DNA of 54,686 nt, taken from contig CAZMXF010000001.1 in NCBI GenBank assembly GCA_964570015.1, positions 1 through 54,686 on the forward strand, in the 5' to 3' direction. Below are positions 594 through 52,498 of this stretch, one piece after another (positions within the stretch are counted from its first letter, which is position 1; each line of letters opens with the position of its first letter). The stretch comes from an uncultured Oscillospiraceae bacterium (GTDB taxonomy: Bacteria > Bacillota > Clostridia > Oscillospirales > Oscillospiraceae). A model generated the notes under the pieces. The model was not told the origin of the DNA. It worked only from the letters and a program-made list of their open reading frames with translations, and did not search any database. A program made the position numbers and the translations under genes.

Positions 594-624
594 CTCCCAG
601 AGTGATCGATTCTGGGAGTTTTTT
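594..624 (+). terminator. intrinsic terminator after tRNA-Gly
   Basis: CTCCCAGA (594-601) pairs with TCTGGGAG (611-618) and is followed by TTTTTT (619-624). Confidence 0.65.
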
Positions 625-699
625 CTTGTATTTTTGCAATTATTATGCACTTTCAACCTGCATGGCATACATAAATTCTTGTATACTGACAAGTCCTTT

Positions 700-740
700 T
701 GCACACGAGAGACCAAAAAGTGCACACGAAACTGCACACG
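700..740 (+). repeat. three direct copies of TGCACACG (candidate integrase/Xis arm-type sites in attL)
   Basis: TGCACACG occurs at 700-707, 721-728 and 733-740, in the non-coding stretch between the tRNA terminator and the first phage-side gene. Confidence 0.35.
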
Positions 741-747
741 CTTCATC

Positions 748-957
748 TCATTTTTCTTTCTTTGTACGAAAGTCTGCTCCATAAAAACCATAATTTTCCA
801 CGACCTGAGCTATTTTTCCGCATTCTGGGCAGCTTTCATGATAACTGCTCAGACGAATAAACGAAACATCTTCTATATTTACTTTCTTAAAGAAGCACTC
901 TTCGCAAATATAATGATTTATTCCACAAGTAGGTCTTTCAGACTCATTTAGTAGCAT
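748..957 (-). CDS. small zinc-ribbon protein (69 aa), function unknown
   Basis: ATG at 957 is preceded by GGAGGAC. The protein has two Cys pairs (CGINHYICEEC ... CPEC). Its start overlaps the upstream stop by 14 nt. Confidence 0.5.
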   Translation of the reverse strand: MLLNESERPTCGINHYICEECFFKKVNIEDVSFIRLSSYHESCPECGKIAQVVENYGFYGADFRTKKEK

Positions 958-1228
958 AAAGGTCCTCCATGTGCTCATCGATCTTCTTAGCGAACTCATT
1001 TTTTGCCTTAAATCCAATAAGATCAGATAATCCAATAGAACCATCAGTACAAAAATGGCTTGTTTTTTCTAAAATAGGCCCTCCAAGAATTGACCTGCTC
1101 ATTCTAGCTTCTTCATTAAGACCAATCGCTGTTAAGCACTCTAATGGAATATTTCTATTTCCTGTTCGGCCAGTCTCAAAAGTCATTCCACAAAGTCTAC
1201 ACCTATACGTTGCTTTGTATATTACCAT
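944..1228 (-). CDS. small Cys-containing protein (94 aa) whose C-terminus mimics an integrase C-terminus
   Basis: The ATG at 1228 abuts the IS end. The sequence has CRLCG near the N-terminus. The C-terminal ..EFAKKIDEHMEDLY matches the integrase tail ..EFAKRIDDHMEELY. Confidence 0.45.
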   Translation of the reverse strand: MVIYKATYRCRLCGMTFETGRTGNRNIPLECLTAIGLNEEARMSRSILGGPILEKTSHFCTDGSIGLSDLIGFKAKNEFAKKIDEHMEDLYATK

Positions 1229-1231
1229 TAT

Positions 1232-2914: not shown

Positions 2915-3982
2915 ATTATATAATTCCTCCATATGATCATCGATTCTCTTAGCGAACTCATCTTCCTTGTCAGGAATCGTATGCTGATAAACTGTTTTGA
3001 GCATATTATCTGTCGCGTGCCCCATTCGTTTCATGGCATATTTGTCGGGAACTCCAAGAGTATGAGCTTCTGATGCTGCGAAATGCCTCAGATCATGAAA
3101 CCTGTAGTGCTGAACTCCTGCCTGCTTACAGAATCTCACGAACGCCTGATAAATAAGATCTGACTTGAACGGGAATAGATACTCTTCATCAATTGACGTG
3201 ATTTTAGATCCTGTAAGATGATCAGCTCTCATTACTTCAAGTCTGGCAACCTTCAGATCGTCTATCATCTTATCGATAGTTTCTGGTAAAACGATCCAGC
3301 GATCACCTGAAATTGTTTTAGTGAGTTTCTCAAATGCTTTGCCCTTGACTCCCCTAACAACTGCTCTCTGAATATGCAGCCTTCCATTTTGAATGTCGCC
3401 ATACTTGAGCCCCTTGATCTCTGACATCCTCAAACCAAGCCATGACGCAAGCAGAATCGGAAGTTCATATCTAGTTCCCTTTGCCTGTGTCCAGATCAGC
3501 TTCATTTCCTCTTCTGTAGGGATTTGAACTGAACTGGGTTTCTTTTGCGGCAAACGGGTTCTTACTACAAAGTTTGGGCGATACTGTTTTAGTACAGCGG
3601 TTAAGAGTCCATGAGAATTCTGAATAGATTTAGGACTCTTACCTTTTGCCTGATCTTCACTAACCGCAATCTGAATCTGCATCTGATCAAGGTCTGAGAT
3701 ATTAATCTCCATAAGAGACTGCAGATCGTTTTTTCGAATCGTTTTGTATCCTCTGACTGTTGAAGGTGACAGAACTTTTTCTTTAGATTCGATGTAAAGA
3801 TCCATTGCCTTGCCGACTGTTAACGGAATACGCTCTTCTGCTTCGATCCCAGCAAAGAGAAGCTTAGCTGCGTCCTGAGCTTCCTTCTTAGTCCGGCCTG
3901 TGCAGGAATAGCGTTTTCCATTTACCTGAATCTGGCATCTCCAACTTCCAGACTTAAGCTTTTTCGCTGTTGGGCTCTTCAT
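2834..3982 (-). CDS. int: tyrosine recombinase / phage integrase; last 26 codons supplied by the IS
   Basis: GGAGG lies 5 nt before the ATG at 3982, which forms a TAATG overlap with the upstream stop. The N-terminus is arm-binding-like (SGSWRCQIQVNGKRY). The catalytic region reads ..FHDLRHF.. ..GHATDNMLKTVYQH... Codons from 2914 down to the stop at 2834 lie inside the IS inverted repeat. Confidence 0.85.
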   Translation of the reverse strand: MKSPTAKKLKSGSWRCQIQVNGKRYSCTGRTKKEAQDAAKLLFAGIEAEERIPLTVGKAMDLYIESKEKVLSPSTVRGYKTIRKNDLQSLMEINISDLDQMQIQIAVSEDQAKGKSPKSIQNSHGLLTAVLKQYRPNFVVRTRLPQKKPSSVQIPTEEEMKLIWTQAKGTRYELPILLASWLGLRMSEIKGLKYGDIQNGRLHIQRAVVRGVKGKAFEKLTKTISGDRWIVLPETIDKMIDDLKVARLEVMRADHLTGSKITSIDEEYLFPFKSDLIYQAFVRFCKQAGVQHYRFHDLRHFAASEAHTLGVPDKYAMKRMGHATDNMLKTVYQHTIPDKEDEFAKRIDDHMEELYNPQSVKLKCKIITGSPVKNGHLRFTGQ

Positions 3983-4620
3983 TAATACCTCCAATATCTC
4001 GTCGACCGTGTTGCCACAAAATCTGTTCTTAGTACGATGTCATTGGAAGTCCAGTCCATATAAACATATTCATTTGAGCATGGTCTTCCAGTTCCTTCAT
4101 GCCAAATGGTAAGTTCCTCTTTGGCAATTTCCTTTAATTTGCTGAGAACATCATTGTCTGCGCTGTATCTCATCCACTGATTCGGCTGATTAATAACATC
4201 ATCAAGTGTAGATCCAAAGATCGGATTCGGATTATCTACTCTGTTAAATACACACCAGCAATAAGTTCTAAGGTCATCCGTTGAGTTATCCTTGACCCCA
4301 TATAAAACCTTTGCTAGAGAATTCGCCTCCAGGTCAATCTGCTCCTGAAGACTTAAAGGCATTGCTGCTTTTCTTGCGTCTTCAGCATCTCTTTCCGAAA
4401 TATAATTCTGAAGCTGAACTTTGTACTCTGCTGCAGCCCTCTTTTCTGCTCTGTTCTCTGAAATAGTCCATAATCCGACAGAATATAATACGAAGACCAT
4501 CAGAACACAGACCCACTTGATACCAACCTCGATCCAAAAAAGTTCTTTTTCGGAGAGTCTGATCTCCATTTTTTCTGCCATGAGTTCGATGCGCTGTTTC
4601 ATACTGCTTTTTCCTTTCAT
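3982..4620 (-). CDS. membrane-anchored cell-wall hydrolase, SleB/CwlJ (Hydrolase_2)-like; candidate endolysin
   Basis: An N-terminal TM segment (IKWVCVLMVFVLYSVGLW) is followed by ..LAKVLYGV..CWCVFNRVDN..TLDDVINQPNQW.., which resembles the Hydrolase_2 core. Confidence 0.55.
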   Translation of the reverse strand: MKGKSSMKQRIELMAEKMEIRLSEKELFWIEVGIKWVCVLMVFVLYSVGLWTISENRAEKRAAAEYKVQLQNYISERDAEDARKAAMPLSLQEQIDLEANSLAKVLYGVKDNSTDDLRTYCWCVFNRVDNPNPIFGSTLDDVINQPNQWMRYSADNDVLSKLKEIAKEELTIWHEGTGRPCSNEYVYMDWTSNDIVLRTDFVATRSTRYWRY

Positions 4621-4779: not shown

Positions 4780-4810
4780 GTCTATAACTCTCCTTAATTT
4801 TCAGTTAGTT

Positions 4811-4839
4811 TCTCACTATAGAAACTGTGAAAATTACGA
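4811..4839 (-). promoter_or_regulatory. type-1 promoter-like motif, copy A
   Basis: Minus strand reads TCGTAATTTTCACAGTTTCTATAGTGAGA. It lies immediately after a T10 run and before the RBS of the 27-aa ORF. Confidence 0.45.
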
Positions 4840-4840: not shown

Positions 4841-5003
4841 AAAAAAAAATAGTCGTTGTGAGAGTTACGAGCTTCGAACTCGCGTCTCCAATTTAATCCA
4901 CTTATTGGCGTCGGGAACCGTTTCCGGCTTGGTGTCCTACCATTGGACGATTACGTAGTCTAGGCATCTCAGCCTGGCCCGCATAACCGGACCTATCTAC
5001 TCC
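4841..5003 (-). ncRNA. candidate structured non-coding RNA (~160 nt) with tRNA-like D-arm and T-arm modules
   Basis: No ORF is present. The locus is bounded by motif copy B upstream and a T10 run (4841-4850) downstream. It contains GTCC-AATGGTA-GGAC, the GNRA hairpin AGCCG-GAAA-CGGTT, CCAAT..ATTGG, and GCGAG-TTCGAAG-CTCGT. Confidence 0.4.
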
Positions 5004-5033
5004 TCTCTACTATAGGAGCTGTTTTTATTACGA
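5002..5033 (-). promoter_or_regulatory. type-1 promoter-like motif, copy B
   Basis: Minus strand reads TCGTAATAAAAACAGCTCCTATAGTAGAGAGG. It lies directly after the terminator hairpin at 5042-5085. Confidence 0.45.
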
Positions 5034-35399: not shown

Positions 35400-35675
35400 T
35401 TACTGATCAACTACTTTAACATAACTGACTTCCTTGCCTGTGACAGGACTTTTCAGTCGAATGTCCAGCTTTAAGAAGTCATCAATTGCACCTTCGATAG
35501 ACGAATCCATTTCGCGAGGCGTAAAATCCGGTGAAGTAACAGCTATACGAGCCAACAACGAGCTCGAATAGTAGCCGCAAACAGCTTCATCATAAGACGC
35601 CCATGTATCATACTGCTTGAAAGGATTATACGGGTTATCGGAGGTCGATAACATAGTGCGAGCCATGAGCATCAC
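35400..35675 (-). CDS. hypothetical protein
   Basis: 91-aa ORF overlap-coupled to the stop of the 966-aa gene. The start could be one of three ATGs between 35675 and 35666. Confidence 0.6.
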   Translation of the reverse strand: MMLMARTMLSTSDNPYNPFKQYDTWASYDEAVCGYYSSSLLARIAVTSPDFTPREMDSSIEGAIDDFLKLDIRLKSPVTGKEVSYVKVVDQ

Positions 35676-38572
35676 TCTCCTCTCAAATTGAATTGGCTAA
35701 GATCGATCTCTTTGGCAAGCGTAGATCTGGAAATGCCAAGTTCCTGAAGAATATCAGGCACTTTTGCTCCATTTCGAAGCATTGAAAGGGCATGATTTTT
35801 CTTTGCTGCACTCAATCCAGTATCTTTTTTTGGCGTGAATTGCTGCTTTAGCTCGTTTTTATCAGCATATTTCAAAAGTTTCTTCAGACTAGTCTTTGAA
35901 ATAGCGCCCGCATTGATTGCTTCCACTTCTCTGTCTGAGAAAGTGACCTTATAGCGTCTCTTATGCGTAGGATCATCACGAGTTGAACCATAAACAAGAT
36001 CTCTGGCCTGCTCGATCATCCGGCTGGAGATCTTTTTAAGCTTATCAGCATTCTCTTTGCTATTAAGATCAGGATTTGCCTGCTTTGCGGCATCAATCTG
36101 ACTTTTTGCAATTGCCTGGGCCTGCCGTTCTTTCGGAGCTTCCAGTTCCGCTTTTACAATCTTATTATTTAAACTTTCAACTTCATCCTTGTAAATTTCT
36201 TTTGCCGATTTGTTAACTTCCAATTCCTGCGTACTTCTGGATTCTTTTCTCGCTTCATTTCCTAAAGCTTTTAATCTGTTGGAATGATCAGCATAAATTT
36301 TTTCTTTCCAAGTTCCAGACGAAAGTTCATGCGCATCATCAACATAATCCAATTTCTCAACTTTTTCAGTTGCTTCCTTAACTTTTCCGGTTTCTCTGTA
36401 AACTTTTTTGCCTTTATTGTATCTTTCCAACTCAGCTTCAGTCATAATGGAAGGATCCGTAATCTGCTTTGTCTCTTTGTAAGTACGATTTGTATTACGA
36501 TAGATCTTTTCACCATTGTTATATCTTTCCAATTCTTCCGGGGTCATATCATTCTTACGGGTGATTTCTTTTCTTTCCGGAATAACCATTTCGCTCTTGG
36601 CTCTGGATATCAATGTTGAAGCGCCACCACTTCCATCATCGTTTGCATGCCGTTGATATTTGTCTACAAGCTCCTGAATTCTGTTGTCTTCATAACTTTT
36701 CTGCCAATCCAGATTGTGCTTTTCGGCATCGATAACGACCATGGAATGCTTAACCGCTCTGACAATTTCATCAGAATCAAGCTCAGCGCCTTTAATAGTC
36801 ATGTCTGTAATAAGATTCGAGATCTTACCCATTTCCATGCCTTTATTGAAACTATCGCCAACCATTCCATCACGGCTTTTGCCAGTACAACGCTGTGTAT
36901 CTGGATTTCTAGCATATTGATCATTTGGATTAAAATTAATCAGTTCATCAATTGCCGGATCGGTTTTAAAGTTTTCGCCTTTTGTCGGAATGACAAGAAC
37001 CGTATCGCCATCACAGTCTGCACCGGAAAGTTGTGCTCTTGTTGTCGGATTAACACCTATTGCATGTTCCGGATACTGTCCTATTTTATCAATGCCTTCC
37101 TGATTATTATTATTAACAGTCAGTTTCGGAATCTCAAATGTACCGGCATGTGGATGACGAATCAGAATTACTTCTTCACCATCTTCATACATTGGAGCAT
37201 AAACTTCGTTCTTTCCAAGAGAATTTACAGGCATTAAGACTTGCGTACTTTGTCCAGAAAAACTTGCGCCTTTTAAGTCCACAGCTGCAGAATCACATTT
37301 TGAAGCGAATTCATCCATCATTTCTTTTCGAATGGTTGGATTTGAAATGTCTTTTATTTCATCAAATTCACGCTCAAATTCATCATATTTCTTGTCAAGC
37401 TGTTTCTCGATAGTTGATGGATATTGTTTACTTAAAAATTGTGAAGATGAAGTGTTTGCCCATTTGTCCCAGTCTTCATTATCATTGACAATATTAATTG
37501 GCGAAGTATGCATTTCTCCATCAGAACCTTCATAATCCCACTGACGAAATGAAGCTCCAAATGGATTTGACGGGTCATTCTTCATATGCTTCAGAACAGT
37601 ATCATCGCCTTCTCCAAGCATTGGCGTGCCTTCGTGCTTATTAGTGTTAAACATAATATCAACGCCATCAGGCCAATCTTTTAGCGATTCTTCTGTAGCG
37701 TAATGTGCCATACCTTTCAGGTAATGACTATCATCAACAGCGATGCGAACCTGTGCATAGCGATTCTGTCCTAAAGTCAGATCTTCAACGCCTGGACGAA
37801 TCTCAATTGTTCCGTCACTGTCAGTGCCACCCTGTTCGTCATATCGAACAGCAACACGACTAGAATCAACACTTTCAATTGGCTTTCTCAAGACCGGCGT
37901 TTCGCCGTAATCTTTAAAATATAATCCATCAGGAGAGGTTACTTCACCAATATTGTCAAAGACTTCCTGTCTGGTCGTCTCGCCATCACAGAGAATCTGC
38001 ATGGTTGTCTTCTGTTTTGGATTGGAAGCCTGAGGAAGCTGAATATTATAGACGTTGTAGCCCTGATCCTTCAGAATGACACGAGCTTGTTCCAGCTGCG
38101 TTTCACTGATGCCAAGCTGACGATGAACGCCTTCACCAATATCAAGATAGGGCTTTTGCTCCAGCATATTACTCAAATTCTCAGCGATGCCGGACAAAGT
38201 CTGTTTATTCTTCTGCTTATTCGGATCAAGCCAGTTGCCAATGGTTTTATCAGTGACGCCAAGCTCTTTAGCAATTGCAACATTACTCCAGCCTTTATTT
38301 TTCAGCTTCTGAGCCTTCATAAGGGCTTTCATGTCTTCCTGCTCTCTGAAATATCTTTCATAAGCACGAAAGTCATTTGTGCTCAGGCCAAAGGCTTTAG
38401 CAATATCTTTCTCTTTTAGCCCCATTTGCTCAAGCTCTTTTGCTCTTGTCAGAAAATTCTTATTTCGCTGTGGATTCTTGCCGGATCCCCAAGGGTATCT
38501 TCCGGAATGGCGTGGAGTGCCGTACCATAATCCGTCCTCACCCTGGACGAATTCCATCTGCTGAAATATCAT
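35672..38572 (-). CDS. candidate single-chain double-psi beta-barrel RNA polymerase (YonO/RdRP-like) with HTH modules
   Basis: 966 aa. The region ..VILIRHPHAGTFEI..(30 aa)..NPTTRAQLSGADCDGDTVLVIP.. contains DCDGD, encoded at 37004-37018. HTH-like segments are GWSNVAIAKELGVTDKTIGNWL (N-terminal) and VPDILQELGISRSTLAKEI (C-terminal). Confidence 0.6.
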   Translation of the reverse strand: MIFQQMEFVQGEDGLWYGTPRHSGRYPWGSGKNPQRNKNFLTRAKELEQMGLKEKDIAKAFGLSTNDFRAYERYFREQEDMKALMKAQKLKNKGWSNVAIAKELGVTDKTIGNWLDPNKQKNKQTLSGIAENLSNMLEQKPYLDIGEGVHRQLGISETQLEQARVILKDQGYNVYNIQLPQASNPKQKTTMQILCDGETTRQEVFDNIGEVTSPDGLYFKDYGETPVLRKPIESVDSSRVAVRYDEQGGTDSDGTIEIRPGVEDLTLGQNRYAQVRIAVDDSHYLKGMAHYATEESLKDWPDGVDIMFNTNKHEGTPMLGEGDDTVLKHMKNDPSNPFGASFRQWDYEGSDGEMHTSPINIVNDNEDWDKWANTSSSQFLSKQYPSTIEKQLDKKYDEFEREFDEIKDISNPTIRKEMMDEFASKCDSAAVDLKGASFSGQSTQVLMPVNSLGKNEVYAPMYEDGEEVILIRHPHAGTFEIPKLTVNNNNQEGIDKIGQYPEHAIGVNPTTRAQLSGADCDGDTVLVIPTKGENFKTDPAIDELINFNPNDQYARNPDTQRCTGKSRDGMVGDSFNKGMEMGKISNLITDMTIKGAELDSDEIVRAVKHSMVVIDAEKHNLDWQKSYEDNRIQELVDKYQRHANDDGSGGASTLISRAKSEMVIPERKEITRKNDMTPEELERYNNGEKIYRNTNRTYKETKQITDPSIMTEAELERYNKGKKVYRETGKVKEATEKVEKLDYVDDAHELSSGTWKEKIYADHSNRLKALGNEARKESRSTQELEVNKSAKEIYKDEVESLNNKIVKAELEAPKERQAQAIAKSQIDAAKQANPDLNSKENADKLKKISSRMIEQARDLVYGSTRDDPTHKRRYKVTFSDREVEAINAGAISKTSLKKLLKYADKNELKQQFTPKKDTGLSAAKKNHALSMLRNGAKVPDILQELGISRSTLAKEIDLSQFNLRGE

Positions 38573-39412: not shown

Positions 39413-39460
39413 AATTTTAACCTCGAAAACTTAAAGAAGTCGTCAAAAAAGGCGTATCTT

Positions 39461-39494
39461 CTCTCTCTACTATAGGCGTTGTGAAAATTACGAA
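39461..39494 (-). promoter_or_regulatory. type-1 promoter-like motif, copy C
   Basis: Minus strand reads TTCGTAATTTTCACAACGCCTATAGTAGAGAGAG. The TAA inside TCGTAA is the helicase stop codon. Confidence 0.45.
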
Positions 39495-41348: not shown

Positions 41349-44300
41349 TCAATGAACGAATTCGTCAAACGAACCGAACTTGTTGATGGTCTCTTTGGCT
41401 TCTTCAGCCAATGTTTCGAAATAGCTCATATCAATATCGTCTTCTTTGTGGAACTGCTGAACGTACTCAGCTTCCATCCAACGATATCCTTTTGAACCTG
41501 CCGCATAAGCATATTTTCCATTATTCTCTCGAACGAGTCTTCCGCCGCCCGTTCCGGGCTTCATCGGGCAGAAGAGACCCGCTCTTCCAACAAAGTGACA
41601 ATCATGGCCTCGTCTAATTTCATCTCTGACTTCAGTCAACCGAATATAATCAGCAAAGTAAGCATCCTTCGTATACTGCTCCAGCTTTTTGTCAGGAATA
41701 TCAACAAGCCTCGGGGCTTCGCCATCAACCAGCTTCTTGTGATTCTCATCATTGAGATCAAAGCCAGCTTTTGACCATTTCTTCAAGAGCTTATCTTCTT
41801 CTTTTTCAACAGCTGTACAATCTCCAAGATCTTCATCCATGTCCAAATATAATCCGAGACCGACCTTTACAGTCTGCGTAACGCACAGATCTCTAAACTC
41901 AAGAGGCTCATGGCTAAATAAAGTTTTGAAAACATACGGATTGCTTGCTTTCTTGAATTGGTCCCCAGTGCCTTCCCACTTCCCTGCCGACTTACCATTC
42001 GCTTTGTCTTCCGTATATTTGCAAATATAAACAGCATCATTCACAAGGCAAAGGCGATCAAACTTATGTTCAATCTCAAACGTGTAGCCAAACTTCTTGC
42101 CATAGTCATAGACAAACTGGAATATCTTTTCGTCAGGATGATCAATCTTAATACTGTCGGTCTTCACATGAATAACCTTGTATCCACGCTTCTGAACTTC
42201 CGTGAGCAGATCAATCATGAAGAGCGCTCCGCGCTTGGCAACCCAGTTGTCGACATTTCTCGGATCATGCAGTTTGTTCTCAAAGTGCGCCGCTGTCAAA
42301 CCATACACAGAGTTAATCGCGATCTTCAATGCGTATGAGAGCGCTGCAGCATCTTCCTCTGAAGTGAGATAAGGCGCAAGCGCCCCATTATAAAGCTTTC
42401 TGGCCTCATCAAACTGTTTATGCTTGATCATGAGTCTCAGATCTAAAAGACGCTTAAAGTTTTCTGTGTAAGGTCCAAAGCCATTCTCCGCTATAATCGA
42501 TGACGGATGGTGCGATGCACTGTCGTAGCATTCAGCGTCGTAGTACATGCCTGGTTCAGCATAGACAAAGCCGCCTTCTCCAGGGTCATAGCCTTTATAG
42601 ATCGATTTCCCAGATATAATTACATCTTCCGAAATATAACGGCTCCGATCGATGCCAAATGGATTAAACTCGTAACCAGGAAACTCTTTGCTGAGATCCG
42701 GATAAACAAACTGAGCCTGAGGATTCTTTTCATTGCCGACAATGAGCTTTGTGGTCAGAGTATTTGTCGTGTCATTTACGGTACTTCCAGGTCCAACCAG
42801 AATATTTGCCAGGTCAGCCAGGATCTGGCGTCCTTTAAAGTCCGCCTGGTTTGCCAGAAAGACAGCTTCAGTTGCAACAACGTCATTGATACAATACTCG
42901 GCAACCTGTTTCCACCTATCCTTCGGAACGGGCTGATCCCATGGAAGTCCTAGCTCCTGGTGATGAATGCCAAGCTCAATCTCCCATTTCTTCAAGCTCT
43001 GCTTCTTGGCACAGAAATCATAGACATCCGTGTAAGATAGATTGTAAGCTTCACGAATCTTATAAACATTCTTGCCTTTGGTCCCGCCTATAATGTTCTG
43101 TGACCTGACAAATAGTTCATACGGAGTTTCGCCCATAATGAGAGCCATTGCAATATGGTTATCGTAGTCTCTATTATTAAACCCGATCACGTTAAAGTCT
43201 CTGAATATCCTAAGGACTTCATCCGATGACGGATTTATCATAGAGAACGCCTTTTCATGAAGAGGTTTAACACAAAGAACAATCAGATTGGGAAACACCT
43301 CAAAATCAATGAACACAATCTTTTTGTCTTTTGTCTCCGGTATGATCTCAGATGGCTCTTCACTTCTGAACTTCATAGTTTCAACCTTGTCCAGACATTC
43401 CAGAGAGTGATGATGTGATGAAGCAGCAAATGCCAGCACAGATGATTTCATATCAGAAACATCATAGTGCATTCCACGCTCATAAGCATCATTTAGTACC
43501 TTTTCTATAAAGCTCACACAAGTAACTGTATAACCAGGCTCAACTTCTTTTCTTAAAGCTTTCTTAATTAGTGATCTTAAATGTTTTTCATCTTCAATTA
43601 CATAATCTTCGACCAATTTTACCTCCTTTTTAAGCGGCAAACCGGAACTGATCGTTGCAATCGGAATATCATTGCATCTGCTCAGCTTTCGTCTCAATGA
43701 CGACTTTCCGGTAAATACCTTAATCTCAACATCTTTTTCATAAACTGATGCAAGCTTACTAACATCTCCTGTGTAAACATACTCTAAATGAATCGCATTC
43801 CCACTCTTACTGAGTTCAGCATAAGTAGGCGGCCACTTGGAAGCGGCCTCCAAATTTAGCTTTAAAGACTTCTCCCCTGTCTCAGGATCCTTCTTGTCAA
43901 AGTCCACCGTAATATAATTATCAGGTGGCATGACATAGTGAAGTTCGGACGTATTAATGTCCGCAAGACAGGTTTCACATTTGTCCCAGGCAACTGATGG
44001 CTGATCACTTCCATCTGTCCGAATATAAGCTGTCTGGGCCGGCCACGAGGCACCAACCTTATCCAGCAGGCTCTCCGTCGTATTAAACTTCAGCCAACCC
44101 TCAGACTCTTCTTCTACCTGTTTCTCAAATATCCCGAACTTTTCAAGCTTCAGACCGCCATACCAGTTTCGAAGATACTTGTCTCCTTCATTGTAGCGTT
44201 CTTTAAACACTCTAAAATAATTTCGCAGTTCTTCTTTAAAGATTCGCTTTGAATAAGGATATGGAACTTTTGCATCACTTACATAAGCGTTATACTTAAA

Positions 44301-45329
44301 CCAAGCATCATTTAATGTTGTAGAGTCACTTTTTTTGAAGTCATCAAAGTATTCTTCCATAAAGTTATAGAAGTCATTTGTTGCTCCAATCATCACCTTT
44401 GGAATATAACTATCATAATAATGAGGATCCTCTTCGTAAACTCTAAGACAATGTTCAGCTATAGCGCCAAGTTCAAAATCAATGCCCTTGAGTAACTGAT
44501 TGTACTTTCTTAAAGGTATCAATTTTCCCGTAGGACTAACATCGATGAGTCTTCTTATAATACCTGACTTGGAATCTGTTATCTTTACGGGTCTATTTGT
44601 TCCAAGAAACAAAAATGTATGAAACGCCATGCCATACATTTTTCCATACTTAGTATTAACCGTCAGAGTCTCATGAGAAACCAGACTATTCAGCAAAGTA
44701 TTATCTTCAATTCTACTAAGATCGCCATCATGCTCAATCGCCACAAGCGGATTATCTTTTAAAGGCTCAAGAGCAAAATCATTGTTTGCACTACCAAGTG
44801 ATTTTGATTTAAACGGGGCGCAATAGCCATCAAACAGCTTTTCTATAATGTGAAGCACCGTTGACTTACCTGTTCCTGAATCTCCATAAAACACAAGAAA
44901 CTTTTGTATCCATCGAGAATCGCCGGAAATTATAGCACCTATTGCCCATTCTATCTTTCGCTTTTCTTCAGGAGCATAAAGAGTCCCAACAAGTTCATCC
45001 CAGCATTTATGGTCGCCTGGTTCAAGCGCATAGTTCAACCGTTTTGACGAATAATTTTCTCGACTTACAGGAGAATTAGAAAACACCAAAGTATCATCTA
45101 ATGGATGAAAATTTTCGTTCGCTTGTTTTTGAACGTATTTGTTCCATTTATCAATAGACCCTGAATCAGTATCCCACAAATATAATACTTTTGCATTTTC
45201 AAGAACTGCATTTGCCTTTTGAAACTTGTCCATTTCGGCATCAATTAAATCAGTAGCATCATCCGGGTCAGTTGACCAACGTCCTTTATCGGCATCCCAA
45301 ATTGCATAAAAGTCTCCGCCTCGAATCAT
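41349..45329 (-). CDS. fusion protein: D5-like SF3 helicase + AEP primase-polymerase domain + family-B DNA polymerase
   Basis: 1,326 aa.
- Helicase: Walker A ..FYGDSGTGKST...
- AEP motifs: ..ITVDFDKKD.. and ..SGNAIHLEY...
- PolB exonuclease motifs: Exo I FIDFEVF, Exo II GFNNRDYD, Exo III YCINDVVAT.
- PolB polymerase motifs: motif A YDSASHHPSSI, motif B KIAINSVYG, motif C HVKTDSI. Confidence 0.75.
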   Translation of the reverse strand: MIRGGDFYAIWDADKGRWSTDPDDATDLIDAEMDKFQKANAVLENAKVLYLWDTDSGSIDKWNKYVQKQANENFHPLDDTLVFSNSPVSRENYSSKRLNYALEPGDHKCWDELVGTLYAPEEKRKIEWAIGAIISGDSRWIQKFLVFYGDSGTGKSTVLHIIEKLFDGYCAPFKSKSLGSANNDFALEPLKDNPLVAIEHDGDLSRIEDNTLLNSLVSHETLTVNTKYGKMYGMAFHTFLFLGTNRPVKITDSKSGIIRRLIDVSPTGKLIPLRKYNQLLKGIDFELGAIAEHCLRVYEEDPHYYDSYIPKVMIGATNDFYNFMEEYFDDFKKSDSTTLNDAWFKYNAYVSDAKVPYPYSKRIFKEELRNYFRVFKERYNEGDKYLRNWYGGLKLEKFGIFEKQVEEESEGWLKFNTTESLLDKVGASWPAQTAYIRTDGSDQPSVAWDKCETCLADINTSELHYVMPPDNYITVDFDKKDPETGEKSLKLNLEAASKWPPTYAELSKSGNAIHLEYVYTGDVSKLASVYEKDVEIKVFTGKSSLRRKLSRCNDIPIATISSGLPLKKEVKLVEDYVIEDEKHLRSLIKKALRKEVEPGYTVTCVSFIEKVLNDAYERGMHYDVSDMKSSVLAFAASSHHHSLECLDKVETMKFRSEEPSEIIPETKDKKIVFIDFEVFPNLIVLCVKPLHEKAFSMINPSSDEVLRIFRDFNVIGFNNRDYDNHIAMALIMGETPYELFVRSQNIIGGTKGKNVYKIREAYNLSYTDVYDFCAKKQSLKKWEIELGIHHQELGLPWDQPVPKDRWKQVAEYCINDVVATEAVFLANQADFKGRQILADLANILVGPGSTVNDTTNTLTTKLIVGNEKNPQAQFVYPDLSKEFPGYEFNPFGIDRSRYISEDVIISGKSIYKGYDPGEGGFVYAEPGMYYDAECYDSASHHPSSIIAENGFGPYTENFKRLLDLRLMIKHKQFDEARKLYNGALAPYLTSEEDAAALSYALKIAINSVYGLTAAHFENKLHDPRNVDNWVAKRGALFMIDLLTEVQKRGYKVIHVKTDSIKIDHPDEKIFQFVYDYGKKFGYTFEIEHKFDRLCLVNDAVYICKYTEDKANGKSAGKWEGTGDQFKKASNPYVFKTLFSHEPLEFRDLCVTQTVKVGLGLYLDMDEDLGDCTAVEKEEDKLLKKWSKAGFDLNDENHKKLVDGEAPRLVDIPDKKLEQYTKDAYFADYIRLTEVRDEIRRGHDCHFVGRAGLFCPMKPGTGGGRLVRENNGKYAYAAGSKGYRWMEAEYVQQFHKEDDIDMSYFETLAEEAKETINKFGSFDEFVH

Positions 45330-45456
45330 AAGATCTTTACTTTTCTTAGCAATAAACTTAGGATAAATTTCAGGTCGTGCATCTTTTTTCGCTCCTGGCC
45401 TGCATTCAATTTTAACGAAATCCGTAATTTAACCTCCTTCCTTCAAAAATTGGTTA

Positions 45457-46299: not shown

Positions 46300-46899
46300 T
46301 CAATCCTCCTCTACAAAGTCTCCATACTCATCAGAATATAATCCATCCTCGACTCTGATTTCATTTATGAGGCTAAGCTGTTTGTCATATACAAGCGACG
46401 TTGAGTCAAATATAATTCCGATATACTGATCCCAGTCCTTGCCGAGAACCTTATCCGGATTTCTAATGATCGTGCCATCTTCTAAGCAGACAGTTCCATC
46501 GCCCTTATAGAAAATATAATAACCTCTTCCGTAAGACTTGTCGTCCAGCTCACTCTTGTTAACAACTGGCACAAAACGCTCATCATCTGGCAAATCAGAA
46601 ACAACTTCAGGAGTAACAGGAGTCATATCAAGATCCCTCACGAGAGCTGAGTAATTGGTCTTATGAGTGTCCGGTTTTACCCTTTTTTCACTAATTTCAT
46701 GAACTTTTTCGCCCATAATGAACGGAACCTCATCAGTGCCCTCTAAATCCTCTGAAATGGCCTCAGAATCGCTTGTACGGGCATTTTCAACGTCAGTCGA
46801 TATCTCGCTCAGCTTTTTCTTAATCTCCTTACGCAGGCATATGAGCGTAATTCCGGCGCCTACCGCACAACCACCAAGAAATATAATTAGATTCTTCAT
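46300..46899 (-). CDS. N-terminally anchored membrane protein
   Basis: 199 aa with a TM segment at residues ~4-22. ATGA overlap with the upstream gene. Confidence 0.65.
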   Translation of the reverse strand: MKNLIIFLGGCAVGAGITLICLRKEIKKKLSEISTDVENARTSDSEAISEDLEGTDEVPFIMGEKVHEISEKRVKPDTHKTNYSALVRDLDMTPVTPEVVSDLPDDERFVPVVNKSELDDKSYGRGYYIFYKGDGTVCLEDGTIIRNPDKVLGKDWDQYIGIIFDSTSLVYDKQLSLINEIRVEDGLYSDEYGDFVEED

Positions 46900-47852
46900 C
46901 AGATCATTCCTTTCAGCGGATAGAAGTTAAAATCGAGTCTGAGACACGGTTTATACACAAAAGAGTTCTTCTCCACATCCCAGATCTTTTCGTAGCCTTC
47001 CAAACGGGTAACTTCAAGTCGCGCTCCTTTTCTTGAACAGCCAACGTCGATAAGATCTTCAGTAATATATTCTTCTCTGAATCCGAGCTGTCTTAGAATC
47101 TCTGCCCCTGAATAGAACTTGGCAACGCCAACTTCAAGGTCCTTTCGAATGTTTTCAACTCTCGAATCCAGGAAATAATCAGCATAGGACCGAATATCAA
47201 ACGCATCGCAGGTCAGCTCATTAAAGTTCCTTGCATAGATCGACCCCGGCTGATTAATAAAGACATCGGCTTTTTTCTCAACGATTTTCTCCTGACCGGT
47301 TACAGGATCTTTCTCAATTACCTGAACCATGCCTTCCTGGGCGCCAAGATAGATTTTTTCCTCGGTTTCCTTACCAACAGCATCCTGAACTCTGCCACGG
47401 TATTCGTTAAATAGTTGCTGAACTGCCACAGAATTCGCTAAAAGCCGTGTATTTCGCACTCTAAGCTCTTTATGAGCCCCAAAGACACTCAGAGCACCAG
47501 CACTCCACAAAAGCGCAGGAACAGCGTAAATACGGCCAATTTTGAGACCGGCTTTCAGGTAAATTCCCAGATATCTCTTACCTTTCTCAGCCTTTTCTGC
47601 CTTTGTGAGTTCTTTCTTTTCCGTGCCCTCACAGACTTCGTCGAGCCTTTCCTGGGCTTTGATCGCATCATTAGTAGCATCGATAACTTCCTTCGCTTCC
47701 GGAGTTTTCATGCATGCATAAACAGTTCCAACCAAAAGGGATACACCGCCGGCAATAAGCATGAGTTCAGGTCTCGTTTCGATAACCTTTCTTCCAACGA
47801 CTTTCATTGTGGATTTCCATGCACCGGACTTAAAGTAATTAATAGGATTCAT
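46899..47852 (-). CDS. two-TM paralog family member 1
   Basis: 317 aa. Architecture: TM1, then K-T-P-E-A-K.., a charged helix, a Gly/Ala-rich TM2 (..WSAGALSVFGAHK..), and a variable C-terminal domain. Confidence 0.7.
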   Translation of the reverse strand: MNPINYFKSGAWKSTMKVVGRKVIETRPELMLIAGGVSLLVGTVYACMKTPEAKEVIDATNDAIKAQERLDEVCEGTEKKELTKAEKAEKGKRYLGIYLKAGLKIGRIYAVPALLWSAGALSVFGAHKELRVRNTRLLANSVAVQQLFNEYRGRVQDAVGKETEEKIYLGAQEGMVQVIEKDPVTGQEKIVEKKADVFINQPGSIYARNFNELTCDAFDIRSYADYFLDSRVENIRKDLEVGVAKFYSGAEILRQLGFREEYITEDLIDVGCSRKGARLEVTRLEGYEKIWDVEKNSFVYKPCLRLDFNFYPLKGMI

Positions 47853-49419: not shown

Positions 49420-49452
49420 GGTTTTAACTCCTTAAAATATAATTATTTGAGA

Positions 49453-49486
49453 TCTCTCTCATCATAATAGCTGTGTTTTTTACGAA
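49453..49486 (-). promoter_or_regulatory. type-1 promoter-like motif, copy D
   Basis: Minus strand reads TTCGTAAAAAACACAGCTATTATGATGAGAGAGA. Confidence 0.4.
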
Positions 49487-49675: not shown

Positions 49676-50605
49676 TTATGATGGATAGCGTTCCAAAAGT
49701 TCTGACGATGGAGCCAGATATTCCCGATAATCAATGTAACACAGAACTGGATATGTATTATCAGGATCCATGTACTTCTTGTATGTGAGAATATCGTTCG
49801 GTCTAAGAAGATCAGAATCCCCACGATATGCGCGAAATTCCAGAAGATCGCCAAGTCCTGTTGTCGAAAGTCCCTCAGCCTCGCCAATATCTTCAAGGAA
49901 TACGTTCATTTCTTCCTTAGCACAAATATTAATGTCTTCCATGCCATTATAGTGAGGACTACCATCGCATACGGCAAATGGCAATTCTCTCTTAAATTCC
50001 TGGTTATAGAGAGTTCTCATATGTTGATTAAATTGGGTAATGCCATTCATGACATCAACGATGTTCCCTTTCCATTTAACGCCTGTAACGGTGTCAATGA
50101 AGAGCGTAGTTCCCTCTCCAGGAACGCCAGGAACCCATTTGTCGTAATCTTCCTCAGGATAATCGTTCTCAATAATGTCATTCTTCAGACTGGCGAGTTC
50201 TTTTTCGCCATCGGGTTTCTTGAGAATAGCTTTACGAAGCTTATCACTATCATCGCGATAAAACTGTGTAAGCATATACATTTCAGCAAGTCGAGAAAGG
50301 TCAATCTTATGCGCACCGATAGCGAGCCCGGTCGAGACCACTCCACATGCACCTGCGATCCAACAGTGTTTTCCATAAATTACCGCCTTATCCTTTACAT
50401 TAAGAGGTTCTTTCTCATCCTCTTTGCGTTTGTTCTCTTCATATTCAATTTCCTTCTGTGCGTTCGGAGCTTCTTTAGCCACCAGAATCGCTGTTACCCA
50501 GAAACCAATAATGCTCCCGCCAATCATTATCGACGGGAGATTCTTTTTGCTAAACGTTACTGCACCTTTTGCAGCCTGCTTGATCCAGTTAAGATTCAGA
50601 TTCAT
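49676..50605 (-). CDS. two-TM paralog family member 2
   Basis: Start reassigned to ATG 50605 (GGAGGAG 7 nt upstream). Same TM1 / charged helix / Gly-Ala TM2 (..GACGVVSTGLAIGAHK..) layout as member 1. Confidence 0.7.
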   Translation of the reverse strand: MNLNLNWIKQAAKGAVTFSKKNLPSIMIGGSIIGFWVTAILVAKEAPNAQKEIEYEENKRKEDEKEPLNVKDKAVIYGKHCWIAGACGVVSTGLAIGAHKIDLSRLAEMYMLTQFYRDDSDKLRKAILKKPDGEKELASLKNDIIENDYPEEDYDKWVPGVPGEGTTLFIDTVTGVKWKGNIVDVMNGITQFNQHMRTLYNQEFKRELPFAVCDGSPHYNGMEDINICAKEEMNVFLEDIGEAEGLSTTGLGDLLEFRAYRGDSDLLRPNDILTYKKYMDPDNTYPVLCYIDYREYLAPSSELLERYPS

Positions 50606-50819
50606 TCGTCTGCTCCTCCTTATGTTCTTTGTGCGCATTTCTAACGGCGTCAATCACAATAAATGGCCATTCTAATGATACGAGCGTAATCGCCTCAGCA
50701 AGCTCTGTAATTAACATTTTATTATTCAAAAGTTCTGGTTTATTTTTGAACGTTTCATGCGCACAAATGCAACTGATGATGACACCAATTCCAAGATATG
50801 CTTTCACAAATTTAGGCAT
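50589..50819 (-). CDS. small two-TM membrane protein
   Basis: 76 aa. The leader CATGAACTTGAAAGGAGAGCC is repeated in inverted orientation at 34989-35009. Confidence 0.6.
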   Translation of the reverse strand: MPKFVKAYLGIGVIISCICAHETFKNKPELLNNKMLITELAEAITLVSLEWPFIVIDAVRNAHKEHKEEQTNESES

Positions 50820-50853: not shown

Positions 50854-51654
50854 TTAAACATACGAATACTTTTGTCCGAGATATACAGGAACAGTATCAT
50901 ACTCAATAGTCTTGATGTACTTATTACCCCATGCCATCTGTCCAATGTGTGCTTTGAAACGATTCTTATTGCCCCAACCTTCAACTGTTCCAAAGGTCGA
51001 GCTCTCAAGTCCAAGCATCGCTCGCCAGTCATTCCACTTGAGAAACGTGATTCGAGAAGCTTCATTTATTGCATCCAGCAGCTGACTTTCTGGAATCTTT
51101 ATGAAATGACCAATGAAAGTATCATAATATTCCGTCCCGTCCCATACAGTATCTTCATCAAACGGGGCTTTATCTGCAGCTTCAGTCGCCTGATCTTCAC
51201 GAACACCATTGATGATCTTCTGATACTCTTCGCTTCTGAGAACTTCTTTGGCTTTTGCTCCAAGTTTCTTGAGTTTATCCTCGCTTAGAGCTAATGCTGC
51301 TGCCAAACCCGCAATCTTTCGTCCATTCAGATAATTTGACAGGAACGACAGAGATCCCGCTCCTGCTGCTGAGAGAATAGCCCAGCGATAACTATAAGCA
51401 ACTTTCAGACCTGTTTCGATCTTCAGGTTCGTGATCTCTCTCTTTTTCTCATCTTCATCCTGTACCTGGGTTTCGATCTCCGCTTTGGAATACTCATACT
51501 CATTCTGAATCTCTGCTGTTCTCTTCGCTGCCTTGTAAGAGAAATATAATGTTGCTGCGATCCCTACGATGGATCCAATCGTGCAAATAGTCGGACCATT
51601 TTCGTCCAATAATTTTGCAAAACCGCCAAAGATCTTTGTTTCCTTGATTTTCAT
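50854..51654 (-). CDS. two-TM paralog family member 3
   Basis: 266 aa. Same layout as members 1 and 2 (..YKAAKRTAEIQNEYE.. ..SAAGAGSLSFLSNY..). Confidence 0.7.
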   Translation of the reverse strand: MKIKETKIFGGFAKLLDENGPTICTIGSIVGIAATLYFSYKAAKRTAEIQNEYEYSKAEIETQVQDEDEKKREITNLKIETGLKVAYSYRWAILSAAGAGSLSFLSNYLNGRKIAGLAAALALSEDKLKKLGAKAKEVLRSEEYQKIINGVREDQATEAADKAPFDEDTVWDGTEYYDTFIGHFIKIPESQLLDAINEASRITFLKWNDWRAMLGLESSTFGTVEGWGNKNRFKAHIGQMAWGNKYIKTIEYDTVPVYLGQKYSYV

Positions 51655-51665: not shown

Positions 51666-52130
51666 TTAATATTCTCTATAGCTCTCATATGGAGCTGGTA
51701 TTGGTTCTATTACATAAACAGACTCTCCCATTTTTTCTGCTATCGAATCATTTCCAATTGTCAGAAGAGTCGTTTTAAGTTCGAGATTGCATGCGTAGTC
51801 TTCACTTGGTGAATATCCATAAAGATCACCAAAGTCAGACTCGGTTATATTCCAGAGACGATAGAGATCATTGTAATTTACGTAATTCCCTTCAAATCCG
51901 ACTTCTTCCTTCTGAATTTTATTCACGTCAGGATCTCCGAAATATAATTCTTTAAAAAACTTAATGCCTTCGTCGACAGCTTCAATACTGGCTCGAAACC
52001 ATCGTCCACCAAATCCATCATAACAAAGCTGATCACCAGAACCGGTATACTCAACACTTGGCCGGTTCATATATTTTCCCATCGGGGGTCCGCATCTCAT
52101 CGCTACATGTCTTGCTGTGCCCTTTTTCAT
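51666..52130 (-). CDS. hypothetical protein
   Basis: Start at ATG 52130, 9 nt after AAAGGAGAA. 154 aa. No motif was recognised. Confidence 0.6.
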   Translation of the reverse strand: MKKGTARHVAMRCGPPMGKYMNRPSVEYTGSGDQLCYDGFGGRWFRASIEAVDEGIKFFKELYFGDPDVNKIQKEEVGFEGNYVNYNDLYRLWNITESDFGDLYGYSPSEDYACNLELKTTLLTIGNDSIAEKMGESVYVIEPIPAPYESYREY

Positions 52131-52165
52131 TTGTGTGTTTTCTCCTTTCAAGTTAAAAAGTAAAA

Positions 52166-52220
52166 GGACAGCGCAACCTCTCTACACTGTCCTCATACTA
52201 AAAGCTGTGAAATTTACGAA
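52166..52220 (-). promoter_or_regulatory. type-1 motif copy E merged with a terminator hairpin
   Basis: Minus strand reads TTCGTAAATTTCACAGCTTTTAGTATGAGGACAGTGTAGAGAGG... GGACAG (52187-52192) pairs with CTGTCC (52166-52171), followed by TTTTACTTTTT. The TAA of TCGTAA is the stop codon of the 52214-52498 gene. Confidence 0.4.
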
Positions 52221-52498
52221 GTGGATTTGGCTTCTTTCATCGACTCGGAGGCCCAGTCACAGGCGTTATTCCAGGATACTATTGCTAAATCCATAACTCT
52301 GTGGAAATTTTTCTCGGTCTTCGGATAGTGAAAGACTGAGCATGGCCTATTCGTCAAAAGAGTTTCTGAACATTCCGCACATTTAATTTCCATCCTACCA
52401 TCAGACCAGGTAGCAAAGTCTGGTTTCTTCTTACAATACGGACACTTCTTGAGTTCGCCACGACGATTCTTAAAGCTGACTTTAAGTGTTTCGTTCAT
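52214..52498 (-). CDS. Lar-like zinc-ribbon protein (possible restriction alleviation)
   Basis: 94 aa. Contains ..KCPYCKKKPDF..IKCAEC.. and the C-terminal ..AIVSWNN.., as in Lar-family proteins I recall. Confidence 0.4.
   Translation of the reverse strand: MNETLKVSFKNRRGELKKCPYCKKKPDFATWSDGRMEIKCAECSETLLTNRPCSVFHYPKTEKNFHRVMDLAIVSWNNACDWASESMKEAKSTS

Follow-up and report, generated by a model that had tools for sequence, protein, structure and literature searches.

Which enzyme reads the repeated element that stands between the genes of the phage sequence described here, and what does the element do? The sequence is a stretch of 54,686 nucleotides (nt) from an uncultured Oscillospiraceae bacterium (GenBank assembly GCA_964570015.1, contig CAZMXF010000001.1, positions 1 to 54,686), and the whole of this stretch is referred to below as the window. 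The window is a siphovirus-like temperate phage. It contains five strand-specific copies of a block of ~35 nt, one of which, copy C at 39458-39493, is the site that was flagged for study. In this report, we propose that a single-subunit two-barrel RNA polymerase of the phage itself, the predicted product of the open reading frame (ORF) at 35672-38572, uses the five blocks as its promoters, and we place the probability of this assignment at roughly 0.7. A preliminary description of the same DNA had taken the blocks for promoters or other regulatory sites read by a phage factor, with this ORF as the suspect. That suggestion is now supported by the co-inheritance of the motif and the gene, the placement of the copies, and the predicted fold of the polymerase. 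From these sequence comparisons, we infer that the polymerase is the reader, and the start point and the extents of the operons were deduced in the same way.

Sequence of the Repeated Element

The copies found in the window are given below, with the upstream hexamer, the first spacer, the ACA block, the second spacer, the T-A-rich hexamer (the box), and the bases that follow it separated by hyphens.

52184-52219, minus strand, copy E: TCGTAA-ATTTC-ACA-GCTTT-TAGTAT-GAGGACAG (first bases GAGGACA)
49450-49485, minus strand, copy D: TCGTAA-AAAAC-ACA-GCTAT-TATGAT-GAGAGAGA (first bases GAGAGAG)
39458-39493, minus strand, copy C, the flagged site: TCGTAA-TTTTC-ACA-ACGCC-TATAGT-AGAGAGAG (first bases AGAGAGA)
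4998-5033, minus strand, copy B: TCGTAA-TAAAA-ACA-GCTCC-TATAGT-AGAGAGGAG (first bases AGAGAGG)
4804-4839, minus strand, copy A: TCGTAA-TTTTC-ACA-GTTTC-TATAGT-GAGAAAC
4849-4870, minus strand, truncated sixth copy: TCGTAA-CTCTC-ACA-ACGAC-TAT, then a run of eleven T residues (T11); it reads TCGTAACTCTCACAACGACTAT, followed by the T run

The window consensus, AT-TCGTAA-WWWTY-ACA-N4C-TATAGT followed by a purine run, covers ~35 nt. The five minus-strand copies of the preliminary description were all confirmed in position and in sequence, and the fixed distance of 13 nt that it had noted between TCGTAA and a TATA-like hexamer holds in the five aligned copies.

The core TCGTAA-N5-ACA occurs 7 times in 54.7 kb, compared with 0.32 occurrences expected, and none of 100 dinucleotide shuffles gave 7; six of the seven cores are on the minus strand. 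When the window was scored with a position weight matrix (PWM) built from the five copies, the copies themselves gave 34-39 bits and the next best site on either strand gave 9.6 bits, a comparison that is circular in that the matrix was scored on its own training copies, though the gap is large. The consensus was extended on the basis of 26 copies from relatives that had been picked by gene content and not by the positions in question. These copies have AT on the 5' side of TCGTAA and a first spacer of the form WWWTT. The base directly 5' of the hexamer is C in 21 of the 26, the first two bases 3' of the hexamer are purines in every copy (26/26), and no T is found within the first five. A refined 36-nt PWM returned five coding-strand sites in the window, none on the opposite strand, and none in 20 shuffles.

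The truncated copy at 4870 lies inside the 3' end of a non-coding RNA downstream of copy B and is probably a decayed tandem copy. A related locus with a polymerase that is 53% identical (L047) contains three intact tandem copies ~125 nt apart between its helicase and exonuclease genes (4334-4583, minus strand), of which the last two, together with their downstream hairpins, are nearly identical. Judged from this arrangement, the truncated copy beside copy A may be the remnant of a similar tandem.

Placement of the Copies and Predicted Transcription Units

The ORFs around the copies are all on the minus strand, as are essentially all of the genes in the window, and the five copies are intergenic and oriented with the genes. 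Counted from the first base 3' of the hexamer, the next start codon is 36 nt away for copy A, 56 nt for copy C, 41 nt for copy D, and 64 nt for copy E, and copy B adjoins a tRNA-like RNA directly downstream. As had been claimed, the preceding ORF has its stop codon in the TAA of TCGTAA in two cases, namely, the helicase ORF (39488) at copy C and the ORF at 52214-52498 at copy E. Copy B is directly 3' of a terminator-like hairpin at 5085-5042, and copy A is 3' of the T11 run. The ORF map and the positions of the hairpin and the T run also bear out the earlier reading that the copies point with transcription, after a stop codon or terminator and before the next ribosome-binding site (RBS). An element that follows terminators or stop codons and precedes an RBS at a short and regular distance is placed as a promoter would be.

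Read from right to left, the window contains small early genes with copies E and D, the replication block, copy C, the exonuclease gene, the 966-residue ORF, and a 91-residue ORF. These are followed by genes for the connector, an HNH protein, the terminase, the portal, the capsid, and a tape-measure protein of 2286 residues, by the tail and lysis genes, and by a terminator. Copy B, the non-coding RNA, copy A, small genes, a tyrosine integrase, a transposase, and a tRNA-Gly gene complete the layout. Copy E heads a unit that comprises 51666-52151, two DUF6353 genes, and a small zinc-ribbon ORF. Copy D heads a unit that runs through the replication genes, which encode a helicase-primase-polymerase of 1326 residues, a single-stranded DNA-annealing protein, and a helicase. 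The unit of copy C begins with the exonuclease and polymerase genes and continues with the structural and lysis genes, where no further copy is found downstream of C; a distance of 1.2 kb separates the polymerase gene from the connector gene downstream of it. Copy A heads an ORF of 27 residues, an ORF of 212 residues, and the tyrosine integrase (2834-3994).

The 966-Residue Polymerase and Its Neighbor

35672-38572, minus strand, predicted 966-residue single-subunit two-barrel RNA polymerase of the QDE-1/YonO type (assigned from PHROG match, catalytic loop, and fold)
35400-35675, minus strand, 91-residue protein (phrog_4303), directly downstream of the polymerase gene

The 966-residue ORF matches PHROG 4291 ("RNA-dependent RNA polymerase") over its full length with E = 3e-296. 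Its catalytic loop, LSGADCDGD, contains the only DxDGD found in a six-frame translation of the window, and the D.DGD of the LSGADxDGD loop is invariant in 8 lineages and 45 homologues. Helix-turn-helix (HTH) modules are found near residues 40-115 and 922-955, and homologues of the protein give faint matches to sigma-70 region 4. An AlphaFold (AF2) model built on the 45 homologues had a predicted local distance difference test (pLDDT) score of 77. With this model, Foldseek identified QDE-1 (7y7p, E = 1.2e-7), plant RDR2, and gp62 of Thermus phage P74-26 (8f5m, E = 1.3e-5), all with a probability of 1.00 and with TM-scores that are low (0.22-0.35) owing to extra domains; gp66 of crAss-like phage and the cellular polymerases were further down the list. 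A sequence search of the PDB with the polymerase gave no match, and the fold search alone succeeded. The earlier label of a double-psi beta-barrel (DPBB) RNA polymerase candidate for 35672-38572 is sound in light of the PHROG match, the DxDGD loop, and the fold, and these results support the prediction of a two-barrel RNA polymerase similar to QDE-1 and YonO.

Homologues of the polymerase were found in 250 isolated phages of Arthrobacter, Gordonia, Streptomyces, Lactococcus, Faecalibacterium, and other hosts at 35-42% identity, and in metagenomes at up to 93% identity over the full protein. At least 8000 homologues were returned at E <= 1e-10 in one search, and related proteins come from rumen and gut metagenomes and a Clostridiales metagenome-assembled genome. 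A search of genome contigs with the polymerase gave no confirmed relative. Koert et al. have previously described this protein family as a putative polymerase, with the DxDGD motif, an HHpred link to the RNA-dependent RNA polymerase Pfam family, and HTH domains at both ends (bioRxiv 10.1101/842583). They identified it as a signature gene of clusters BI, AM, AU, DJ, CC, and EL together with the Lactococcus 1706-like phages and FP_oengus (bioRxiv 10.1101/842583). Their supercluster spans Actinobacteria and Firmicutes, and promoters are nowhere mentioned (bioRxiv 10.1101/842583).

The 91-residue protein is found at the same position in 8/8 of the genomes and loci compared. It has no Pfam match, and its N-terminal motif is ML(S/T)TxDNP(Y/F)NPF..W..(W/Y)D..GY....LAR. 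It could be an accessory protein or specificity cofactor of the polymerase and is a candidate for that role.

The Motif in Relatives That Carry the Polymerase

The architecture TCGYRW-N5-ACA-N5-TATART-GAGA was found in all 11 of the polymerase-bearing lineages examined, whose polymerases are 35-72% identical to that of the window. The preliminary description had named the absence of the motif from relatives with the polymerase-like gene as an observation that would count against its proposal, and the two were found together throughout. The lineages include Faecalibacterium, Lactococcus, Streptomyces, Arthrobacter (two clusters), and Gordonia phages as well as oral and rumen phages, with L007, L009, and L010 as the rumen/gut contigs. 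Two of the 11 (L009 and L010, 41-42% identity) are partial loci with one variant copy each that was found by eye. All 62 copies in the eight fuller genomes are on the coding strand, and the opposite strand has none.

For four relatives (FP_oengus, Lactococcus phage P118, Streptomyces phage Scap1, and the oral contig89), repeats were sought without the window motif as a probe, and an oriented intergenic repeat of the same build was the top or near-top family in each. The motif was recovered with a loose pattern in Arthrobacter phages Mudcat (cluster AM) and CaptnMurica (AU) and in Gordonia phage Untouchable (DJ). The consensus sequences and single variants are as follows.

Window consensus: TCGTAA ttttC ACA GCTnc TATAGT RRR
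Scap1 consensus: TCGCAA GtTtT nCn nGCnt TaTAGT GAGACCCCTAC
Untouchable consensus: TCGCAn anATT ACA CGcCC TATAAT GAGACCCCtan
Mudcat consensus: tCGCGt aAAtT ACA nGGGC TATAAT g/aRA
P118 consensus: TTTTAn gTTTT ACA TACCC TATAAT GAaAGG
FP_oengus consensus: aCGCGA AAAan nCA gnnTn CTTTATG gaagg
contig89 consensus: TCGCGG ATTCT GCA TGGCC TATAAT GAGACCCC
L009 variant, helicase-exonuclease gap, position of copy C: TCGCGC-GAAAA-ACA-AGGAC-TCTAAT-AGAAGG
L010 variant, helicase-exonuclease gap, position of copy C: ACGCGC-AAAAA-AAC-TCGCC-TTTAAT-AGGAGAG

The variants are lineage-specific and diverge along with the polymerase. An orthologue of copy C occupies the same position in L007/L001, L011, L013, L047, L009, L010, FP_oengus, and Mudcat; L011 and L013 differ very little from the window at this site, and the sequence in L007, the polymerase of which is 72% identical, is TCGTAATTTTTACAACGTCTATAGTAGGAGAGG. 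The 8-11 bases after the box are conserved, with GAGACCCCTAC found in three actinophage clusters. The distance to the start codon is 24-26 nt in Untouchable and Scap1, compared with 36-64 nt in the window. In FP_oengus and contig89, most of the small early genes carry their own conserved terminator hairpin and motif copy. When the HTH recognition helices were compared with the upstream hexamer across 8 lineages, the lineages were too few and the changes too many for covariation to be read.

Two scans of a viral contig collection were used to ask the opposite question, since the motif in phages without the polymerase gene had also been named as contrary evidence. In the first, the bare pattern TCGTAA-N5-ACA-N5-TATAGT was found in 84 stretches, 80 of which were analyzed. 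A full motif was defined as one with an A/T-rich first spacer and at least 7 purines among the 8 bases after the box. Genes of this phage family were present in 14 of the 25 loci with the full motif but in only 2 of the 55 with the bare pattern (Fisher p = 2.5e-7). Both of the latter are near-misses of the purine cutoff, and several of the other 11 full-motif loci are pieces of contigs that do carry the polymerase. The second scan used the actinophage version with 18 fixed bases, for which we estimate ~3 chance matches. It returned at least 120 stretches; the 80 loci analyzed (L106-L185) contain 163 copies, never on both strands of one locus. Family genes were found in 51 of these 80 loci, and the others are short pieces of small early genes. 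As far as the pieces allow, the full motif occurs in contigs of this phage family and not elsewhere.

RNAs and Hairpins Directly after the Copies

4841-5008, minus strand, tRNA-like non-coding RNA of ~165 nt, which extends from the purine run of copy B to a terminal T run
52164-52194, minus strand, hairpin GGACAG...CTGTCC with a T-rich tract, which starts where transcription from copy E is predicted to begin

D and T arms are present in the RNA after copy B, together with a 37-nt insert at the anticodon region and a further ~55 nt that follow the 5' strand; the 5' GAGAG of this RNA is able to pair with a 3' CTCTC. A search of Rfam with this RNA gave only a partial tRNA match below threshold (20.9 bits against a gathering score of 29) and no Y-RNA-like or other family. 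The tRNA-like gene of FP_oengus begins 0 nt after the box and that of L033 begins 5 nt after it; both were reported by ARAGORN as tRNA-??? with "anticodons" of 2 and 4 bases. In P118, two copies head hairpin RNAs of 60 nt with the form GAGAGG...CTCTC followed by ten T residues (T10). Since copies head non-coding RNAs in these cases, the element is not a translation signal. Altogether, tRNA-like or small hairpin RNAs were observed directly after motif copies in four lineages: the window, L014 (2935-3006), L033 (13763-13834, minus strand), and L015 (near 19470 and 23996).

The hairpin at 52164-52194 is either a 5' stem-loop or an attenuator. Comparable hairpins with T tracts lie within a few bases of the predicted start in L047 (4270-4560, minus strand), L009 (9100-9145), and L010 (8970-9030); that of L009 is a perfect GAAGGAG/CTCCTTC stem followed by eight T residues (T8). 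These hairpins could be 5' stabilizers or attenuators. The leader of the copy that precedes the exonuclease and polymerase genes has GGAA(A/T)GTGAC in common between L010 and Mudcat. RNAalifold identified a weak 5' stem in the leaders with little covariation (covariation term of -0.89 kcal/mol).

Proposed Mechanism

In the mechanism that we propose, the polymerase would read DNA through its own HTH modules at both ends. It would bind the upstream blocks as duplex, AT-TCGTAA first and ACA one helical turn later, melt the T-A-rich box (TATAGT), and start the RNA at the first purine just after the box. This geometry would be like that of T7-type promoters, with TATA at -4 to -1, and unlike that of a sigma-70 -10 box. 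Copy E would then serve the early genes, copy D the replication genes, copy B the tRNA-like RNA, and copy A the small genes and the integrase. Copy C would serve the exonuclease gene and the gene for the polymerase itself, which would provide positive feedback. The structural and lysis block of ~34 kb, which has no copy of its own, would be transcribed by read-through from copy C, or else the late genes would be expressed from an unrecognized promoter. The first molecules of polymerase might come from basal host transcription, for example from a site at 45352-45325 that is described below, or be delivered with the virion.

The last of these options leads to a broader and more doubtful proposal. 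The HTH-bearing polymerase and its ~35-bp promoter might form a self-contained, host-independent system in which three HTH units recognize three DNA blocks, the enzyme is packaged and injected, and almost the whole genome is transcribed without the host polymerase. With copies ahead of the earliest genes and its own gene opening the structural module, the enzyme may reach the cell by packaging and injection, as in N4, the crAss-like phages, and P23-45. If correct, such a system would explain why one promoter grammar has been kept across Actinobacteria and Firmicutes, often in phages with a G+C content far from that of the host.

Evidence against the Assignment and Alternative Explanations

Several points weigh against the polymerase as the reader of these elements. 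In the relatives, the copies are concentrated where the early region starts, immediately behind the tail or lysis genes, and the polymerase gene is at the far end beside the structural module; with its gene so distant from the early copies, the polymerase could act first only if it were injected or expressed separately from a promoter of the host. Most lineages, the window among them, have a canonical -10 sequence (TATAAT or TATAGT) as the box, and the host may therefore read those copies. Actinobacterial host polymerases can use -10-only promoters. The tRNA-like genes of FP_oengus and L033 have abnormal anticodon loops and could be processed from longer transcripts. The pieces returned by the two scans are at most 15 kb long, so that the polymerase gene was mostly outside the piece and membership of the family was judged from neighboring genes. 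Finally, the two-barrel enzymes assayed so far are the distant YonO, QDE-1, gp64, and gp66 only.

The alternative that survives best, although we regard it as unlikely, is that the elements are promoters for the host polymerase. The box would be the -10 hexamer of sigma-A, and TCGTAA and ACA would either bind a phage activator in place of the -35 contact or serve to tune a -10-only promoter; even the HTH-bearing 966-residue protein or the conserved 91-residue protein could act as that activator. The -10 form TAnnnT is seen in all five window copies, and Mudcat, Untouchable, P118, and CaptnMurica have a perfect TATAAT as the box. In T4 middle promoters, a MotA box lies ~12-13 bp upstream of the -10 hexamer in place of a -35 hexamer, and the 13-bp spacing found here is similar to that geometry. 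The copies in the relatives head the earliest-looking genes, which are normal territory for the host polymerase, and the polymerase gene is far downstream of most copies.

However, the element is a poor fit to a sigma-A promoter, with no -35 hexamer at the expected distance in the window and a box that departs from the -10 sequence in part of the family. No TTGACA-like hexamer was found 16-18 bp upstream of the box in the window copies, where the bases are nnnTCG, and there is no TG extension. The only -35-like sequence, TTCACA or TTTACA inside the motif, is just 5 bp from the box, and the preliminary description was correct in calling the 13-nt spacing too short for a sigma-A -35/-10 pair. 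Position 2 is the base of the -10 hexamer that sigma-A needs most. It is G in two copies from Scap1 (TGTAGT), C in L009 (TCTAAT), and T in L010 (TTTAAT) and in all 14 copies of FP_oengus (TTTATG type); position 6 is C (TATAAC) in two copies from contig89. The flanking blocks stay conserved where the box departs from the -10 sequence. A sigma-type start is found 6-8 nt downstream of the hexamer and would fall inside the tRNA-like genes that begin 0-5 nt after the box, atypical genes whose RNAs may be processed from longer transcripts. Sigma-A promoters do not usually have 8-11 conserved bases behind the box.

No sigma factor or MotA- or AsiA-like protein was found with PHROGs and/or Pfam among 38 non-structural ORFs of the window, a scan that left out a few short ORFs and in which many ORFs had no annotation. 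Among DNA-binding, transcription-related proteins, only the polymerase with its HTH modules accompanies the motif in every lineage, and the 91-residue protein accompanies the polymerase. The element has been kept across hosts of two phyla in which the surfaces of the host polymerase differ, and this is explained better by an enzyme-promoter pair than by an activator that must dock on the host enzyme.

A further alternative, which we consider highly improbable, is that the blocks are regulatory sites other than promoters, namely, asymmetric operators of an HTH protein that mark or block transcription between genes. The stoperators of mycobacteriophage L5 are repressor sites of 13-14 bp that are distributed through the early and late operons of temperate phages, and, like them, the element described here occurs in many copies of one orientation in short intergenic gaps. 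The phage also encodes HTH modules, and unexplained oriented intergenic repeats are known from other actinophage clusters (PMC7302621). Against this explanation, the element is 35 nt long, with a T-A-rich melting box, a conserved purine start, and a fixed short distance to the RBS or to the start of an RNA gene. It follows terminators, where a new start is needed, and it is not found in the long structural operons, where stoperators would also occur. It is kept in the strictly lytic clusters AM, AU, and EL, which have no repressor or integrase (PMC5513430, PMC7302621). A stoperator of the L5 type was rejected on its length of ~35 bp, the structural operons, and the repressor-less lytic clusters (PMC5513430, PMC7302621).

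An element that acts in the RNA, as an endonuclease processing site, a 5' leader or stabilizer, or part of a terminator, is the least credible of the functional explanations: the purine run after the box is able to pair with a downstream pyrimidine run in several relatives and hairpins with T tracts follow several copies, but TCGYAA, ACA, and the box are mutually non-complementary and upstream of the foldable region, the covariation is weak (-0.89 kcal/mol), and the block begins inside a stop codon (C, E) or after terminators (B, A), so that it would often be partly untranscribed without read-through. Chance or repeat debris as the origin of the motif is ruled out by the statistics and by the conservation across phyla.

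Other Features of the Phage

A sigma-A-like site, TTGCTA-16-TATGAT, was identified at 45352-45325, upstream of the DNA polymerase gene. Its TATGAT is within AAAGATCTTATGATnCGnGGCGGnGA, which is conserved just upstream of that gene in the window (45325-45349, minus strand), in L007 (near 3234), and in L009 (near 3647), and is thus kept down to 41% polymerase identity. This site may be a host-type promoter or a translational operator.

The 1326-residue replicase (41349-45329, minus strand; phrog_4210) has a DUF5906 primase-helicase part and a polymerase part. A "four-in-one" replicase, GP55 of lactococcal phage 1706, was described in 2025 (PMC12205980). From its PHROG match and the synteny with the 1706-like phage P118, the replicase of the window appears to be a member of the same family. 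Three paralogous DUF6353/phrog_2152 genes (46899-47852, 49676-50653, and 50854-51654, minus strand) are found in the early region, across the units of copies E and D.

Downstream of copy A, the integrase (2834-3994) is accompanied by a transposase-like ORF at 1400-2755 and a tRNA-Gly(CCC) gene at 512-585 on the opposite strand. The segment from 1 to 4620 resembles the end or attachment region of a prophage, into which an insertion sequence (IS) element may have been inserted. The integrase shares its strand with the late genes and comes after a motif copy. No record identical to the integrase or to a kinase-like ORF of the window was returned by exact-protein look-ups, probably owing to the start codons chosen. 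A megablast of 11 kb against 50,697 phage records gave no match, so the phage has no close sequenced relative among these isolates.

Comparison with Known Systems

Two-barrel single-subunit polymerases with defined promoters are few; they include those of P23-45 and of phi14:2, a crAss-like phage. No description of the present motif was found in the literature, including a full-text search for the literal sequence, with subscription-only papers (e.g., the original descriptions of phages 1706 and ReqiPepy6) outside the search. Promoters are not mentioned in the cluster descriptions of Arthrobacter, Microbacterium, and Rhodococcus phages, and no report of an assay of this polymerase family was found in the literature searched. 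We propose TCGYRW-N5-ACA-N5-TATART-GAGA, with its lineage variants, as the first promoter consensus for the large family of HTH-fused two-barrel phage polymerases, conserved across two phyla. The consensus makes the enzyme directly testable and supplies an annotation rule for the transcription units of hundreds of genomes. For orthogonal expression in Gram-positive and actinobacterial hosts, it provides a candidate system. It also raises the question of how a minimal relative of the cellular polymerases recognizes a promoter without a separate sigma factor.

The MotA/AsiA system of T4 likewise combines a -10-like hexamer with a phage-specific box ~12-13 bp upstream. It differs in that key -10 positions vary across the present family and that an extra ACA block and a conserved start region are found here. 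A middle promoter of the T4 type was rejected because no activator/anti-sigma pair was found among the 38 ORFs scanned.

The promoters of T7, T3, and SP6 are also contiguous, strand-specific blocks of 23-35 bp that are repeated before groups of genes. As in the T7 class III promoters, a T-A-rich box precedes a purine start (a predicted start in the present case), and CTATAGTGAGA found here agrees with CTATAGGGAGA at 10 of 11 positions. The initially transcribed bases, again as predicted here, are conserved in both, and the promoter variants track the polymerase lineages. The resemblance to the promoters of single-subunit phage RNA polymerases that the preliminary description had seen stands for the start region but not elsewhere. 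The T7, T3, and SP6 promoters have no counterpart of the upstream TCGYAA-N5-ACA, and the enzyme here is predicted to be a two-barrel protein like QDE-1 and YonO rather than one with the right-hand fold of T7 polymerase. The T7 enzyme uses a specificity loop and an AT-rich recognition loop, where the present polymerase presumably uses its fused HTH modules.

The Bacillus prophage SPbeta, a temperate Firmicute phage, encodes YonO, a two-barrel DNA-dependent RNA polymerase that consists of a single polypeptide and whose gene is just upstream of the late and structural genes. YonO transcribes a late operon of 37 genes from one start site, which is ahead of an unannotated non-coding RNA (PMC5467207). 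The long operon from a single start is comparable to the predicted ~34-kb block behind copy C, and copy B heads a non-coding RNA here. The promoter sequence of YonO was not defined in the 2017 paper (PMC5467207), and nothing later was found. A tblastn search with the 966-residue protein (E < 1e-5) gave no Bacillus record among the organisms named for 250 matches, two names not being shown, and YonO is too distant to be found in this way. The TCGYAA/ACA/TATART motif does not occur in the yonN-yonK gap of SPbeta, the region in which YonO starts. That gap (NC_001884, 60300-60700, minus strand) contains two copies of TAATnnTCATTTATGArGGT ~145 nt apart, and one of these copies falls within the amplicon that Forrest et al. 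(2017) used for primer extension. As a lead only, this sequence is a candidate YonO promoter, with a TTTATG-purine box like the CTTTATG-GARGG of FP_oengus.

A further parallel is found in Thermus phage P23-45, which has two two-barrel polymerases, the virion protein gp96 and the non-virion protein gp64, each with its own AT-rich/GC-rich promoter motif upstream of mapped pre-early or early starts (PMC10770324). Relatives of P23-45 without the enzyme are also without its motif, and the motifs are backed by cappable-seq and ChIP-seq (PMC10770324); the motif described here is purely computational. The P23-45 enzymes are nowhere described as containing a helix-turn-helix (PMC10770324), whereas the polymerase of the window carries added HTH modules. 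It is encoded by a single gene (one DxDGD), with no fusion to the tape-measure protein. Among solved phage structures, P74-26 gp62 (8f5m), the homologue of gp64, comes closest to its predicted fold.

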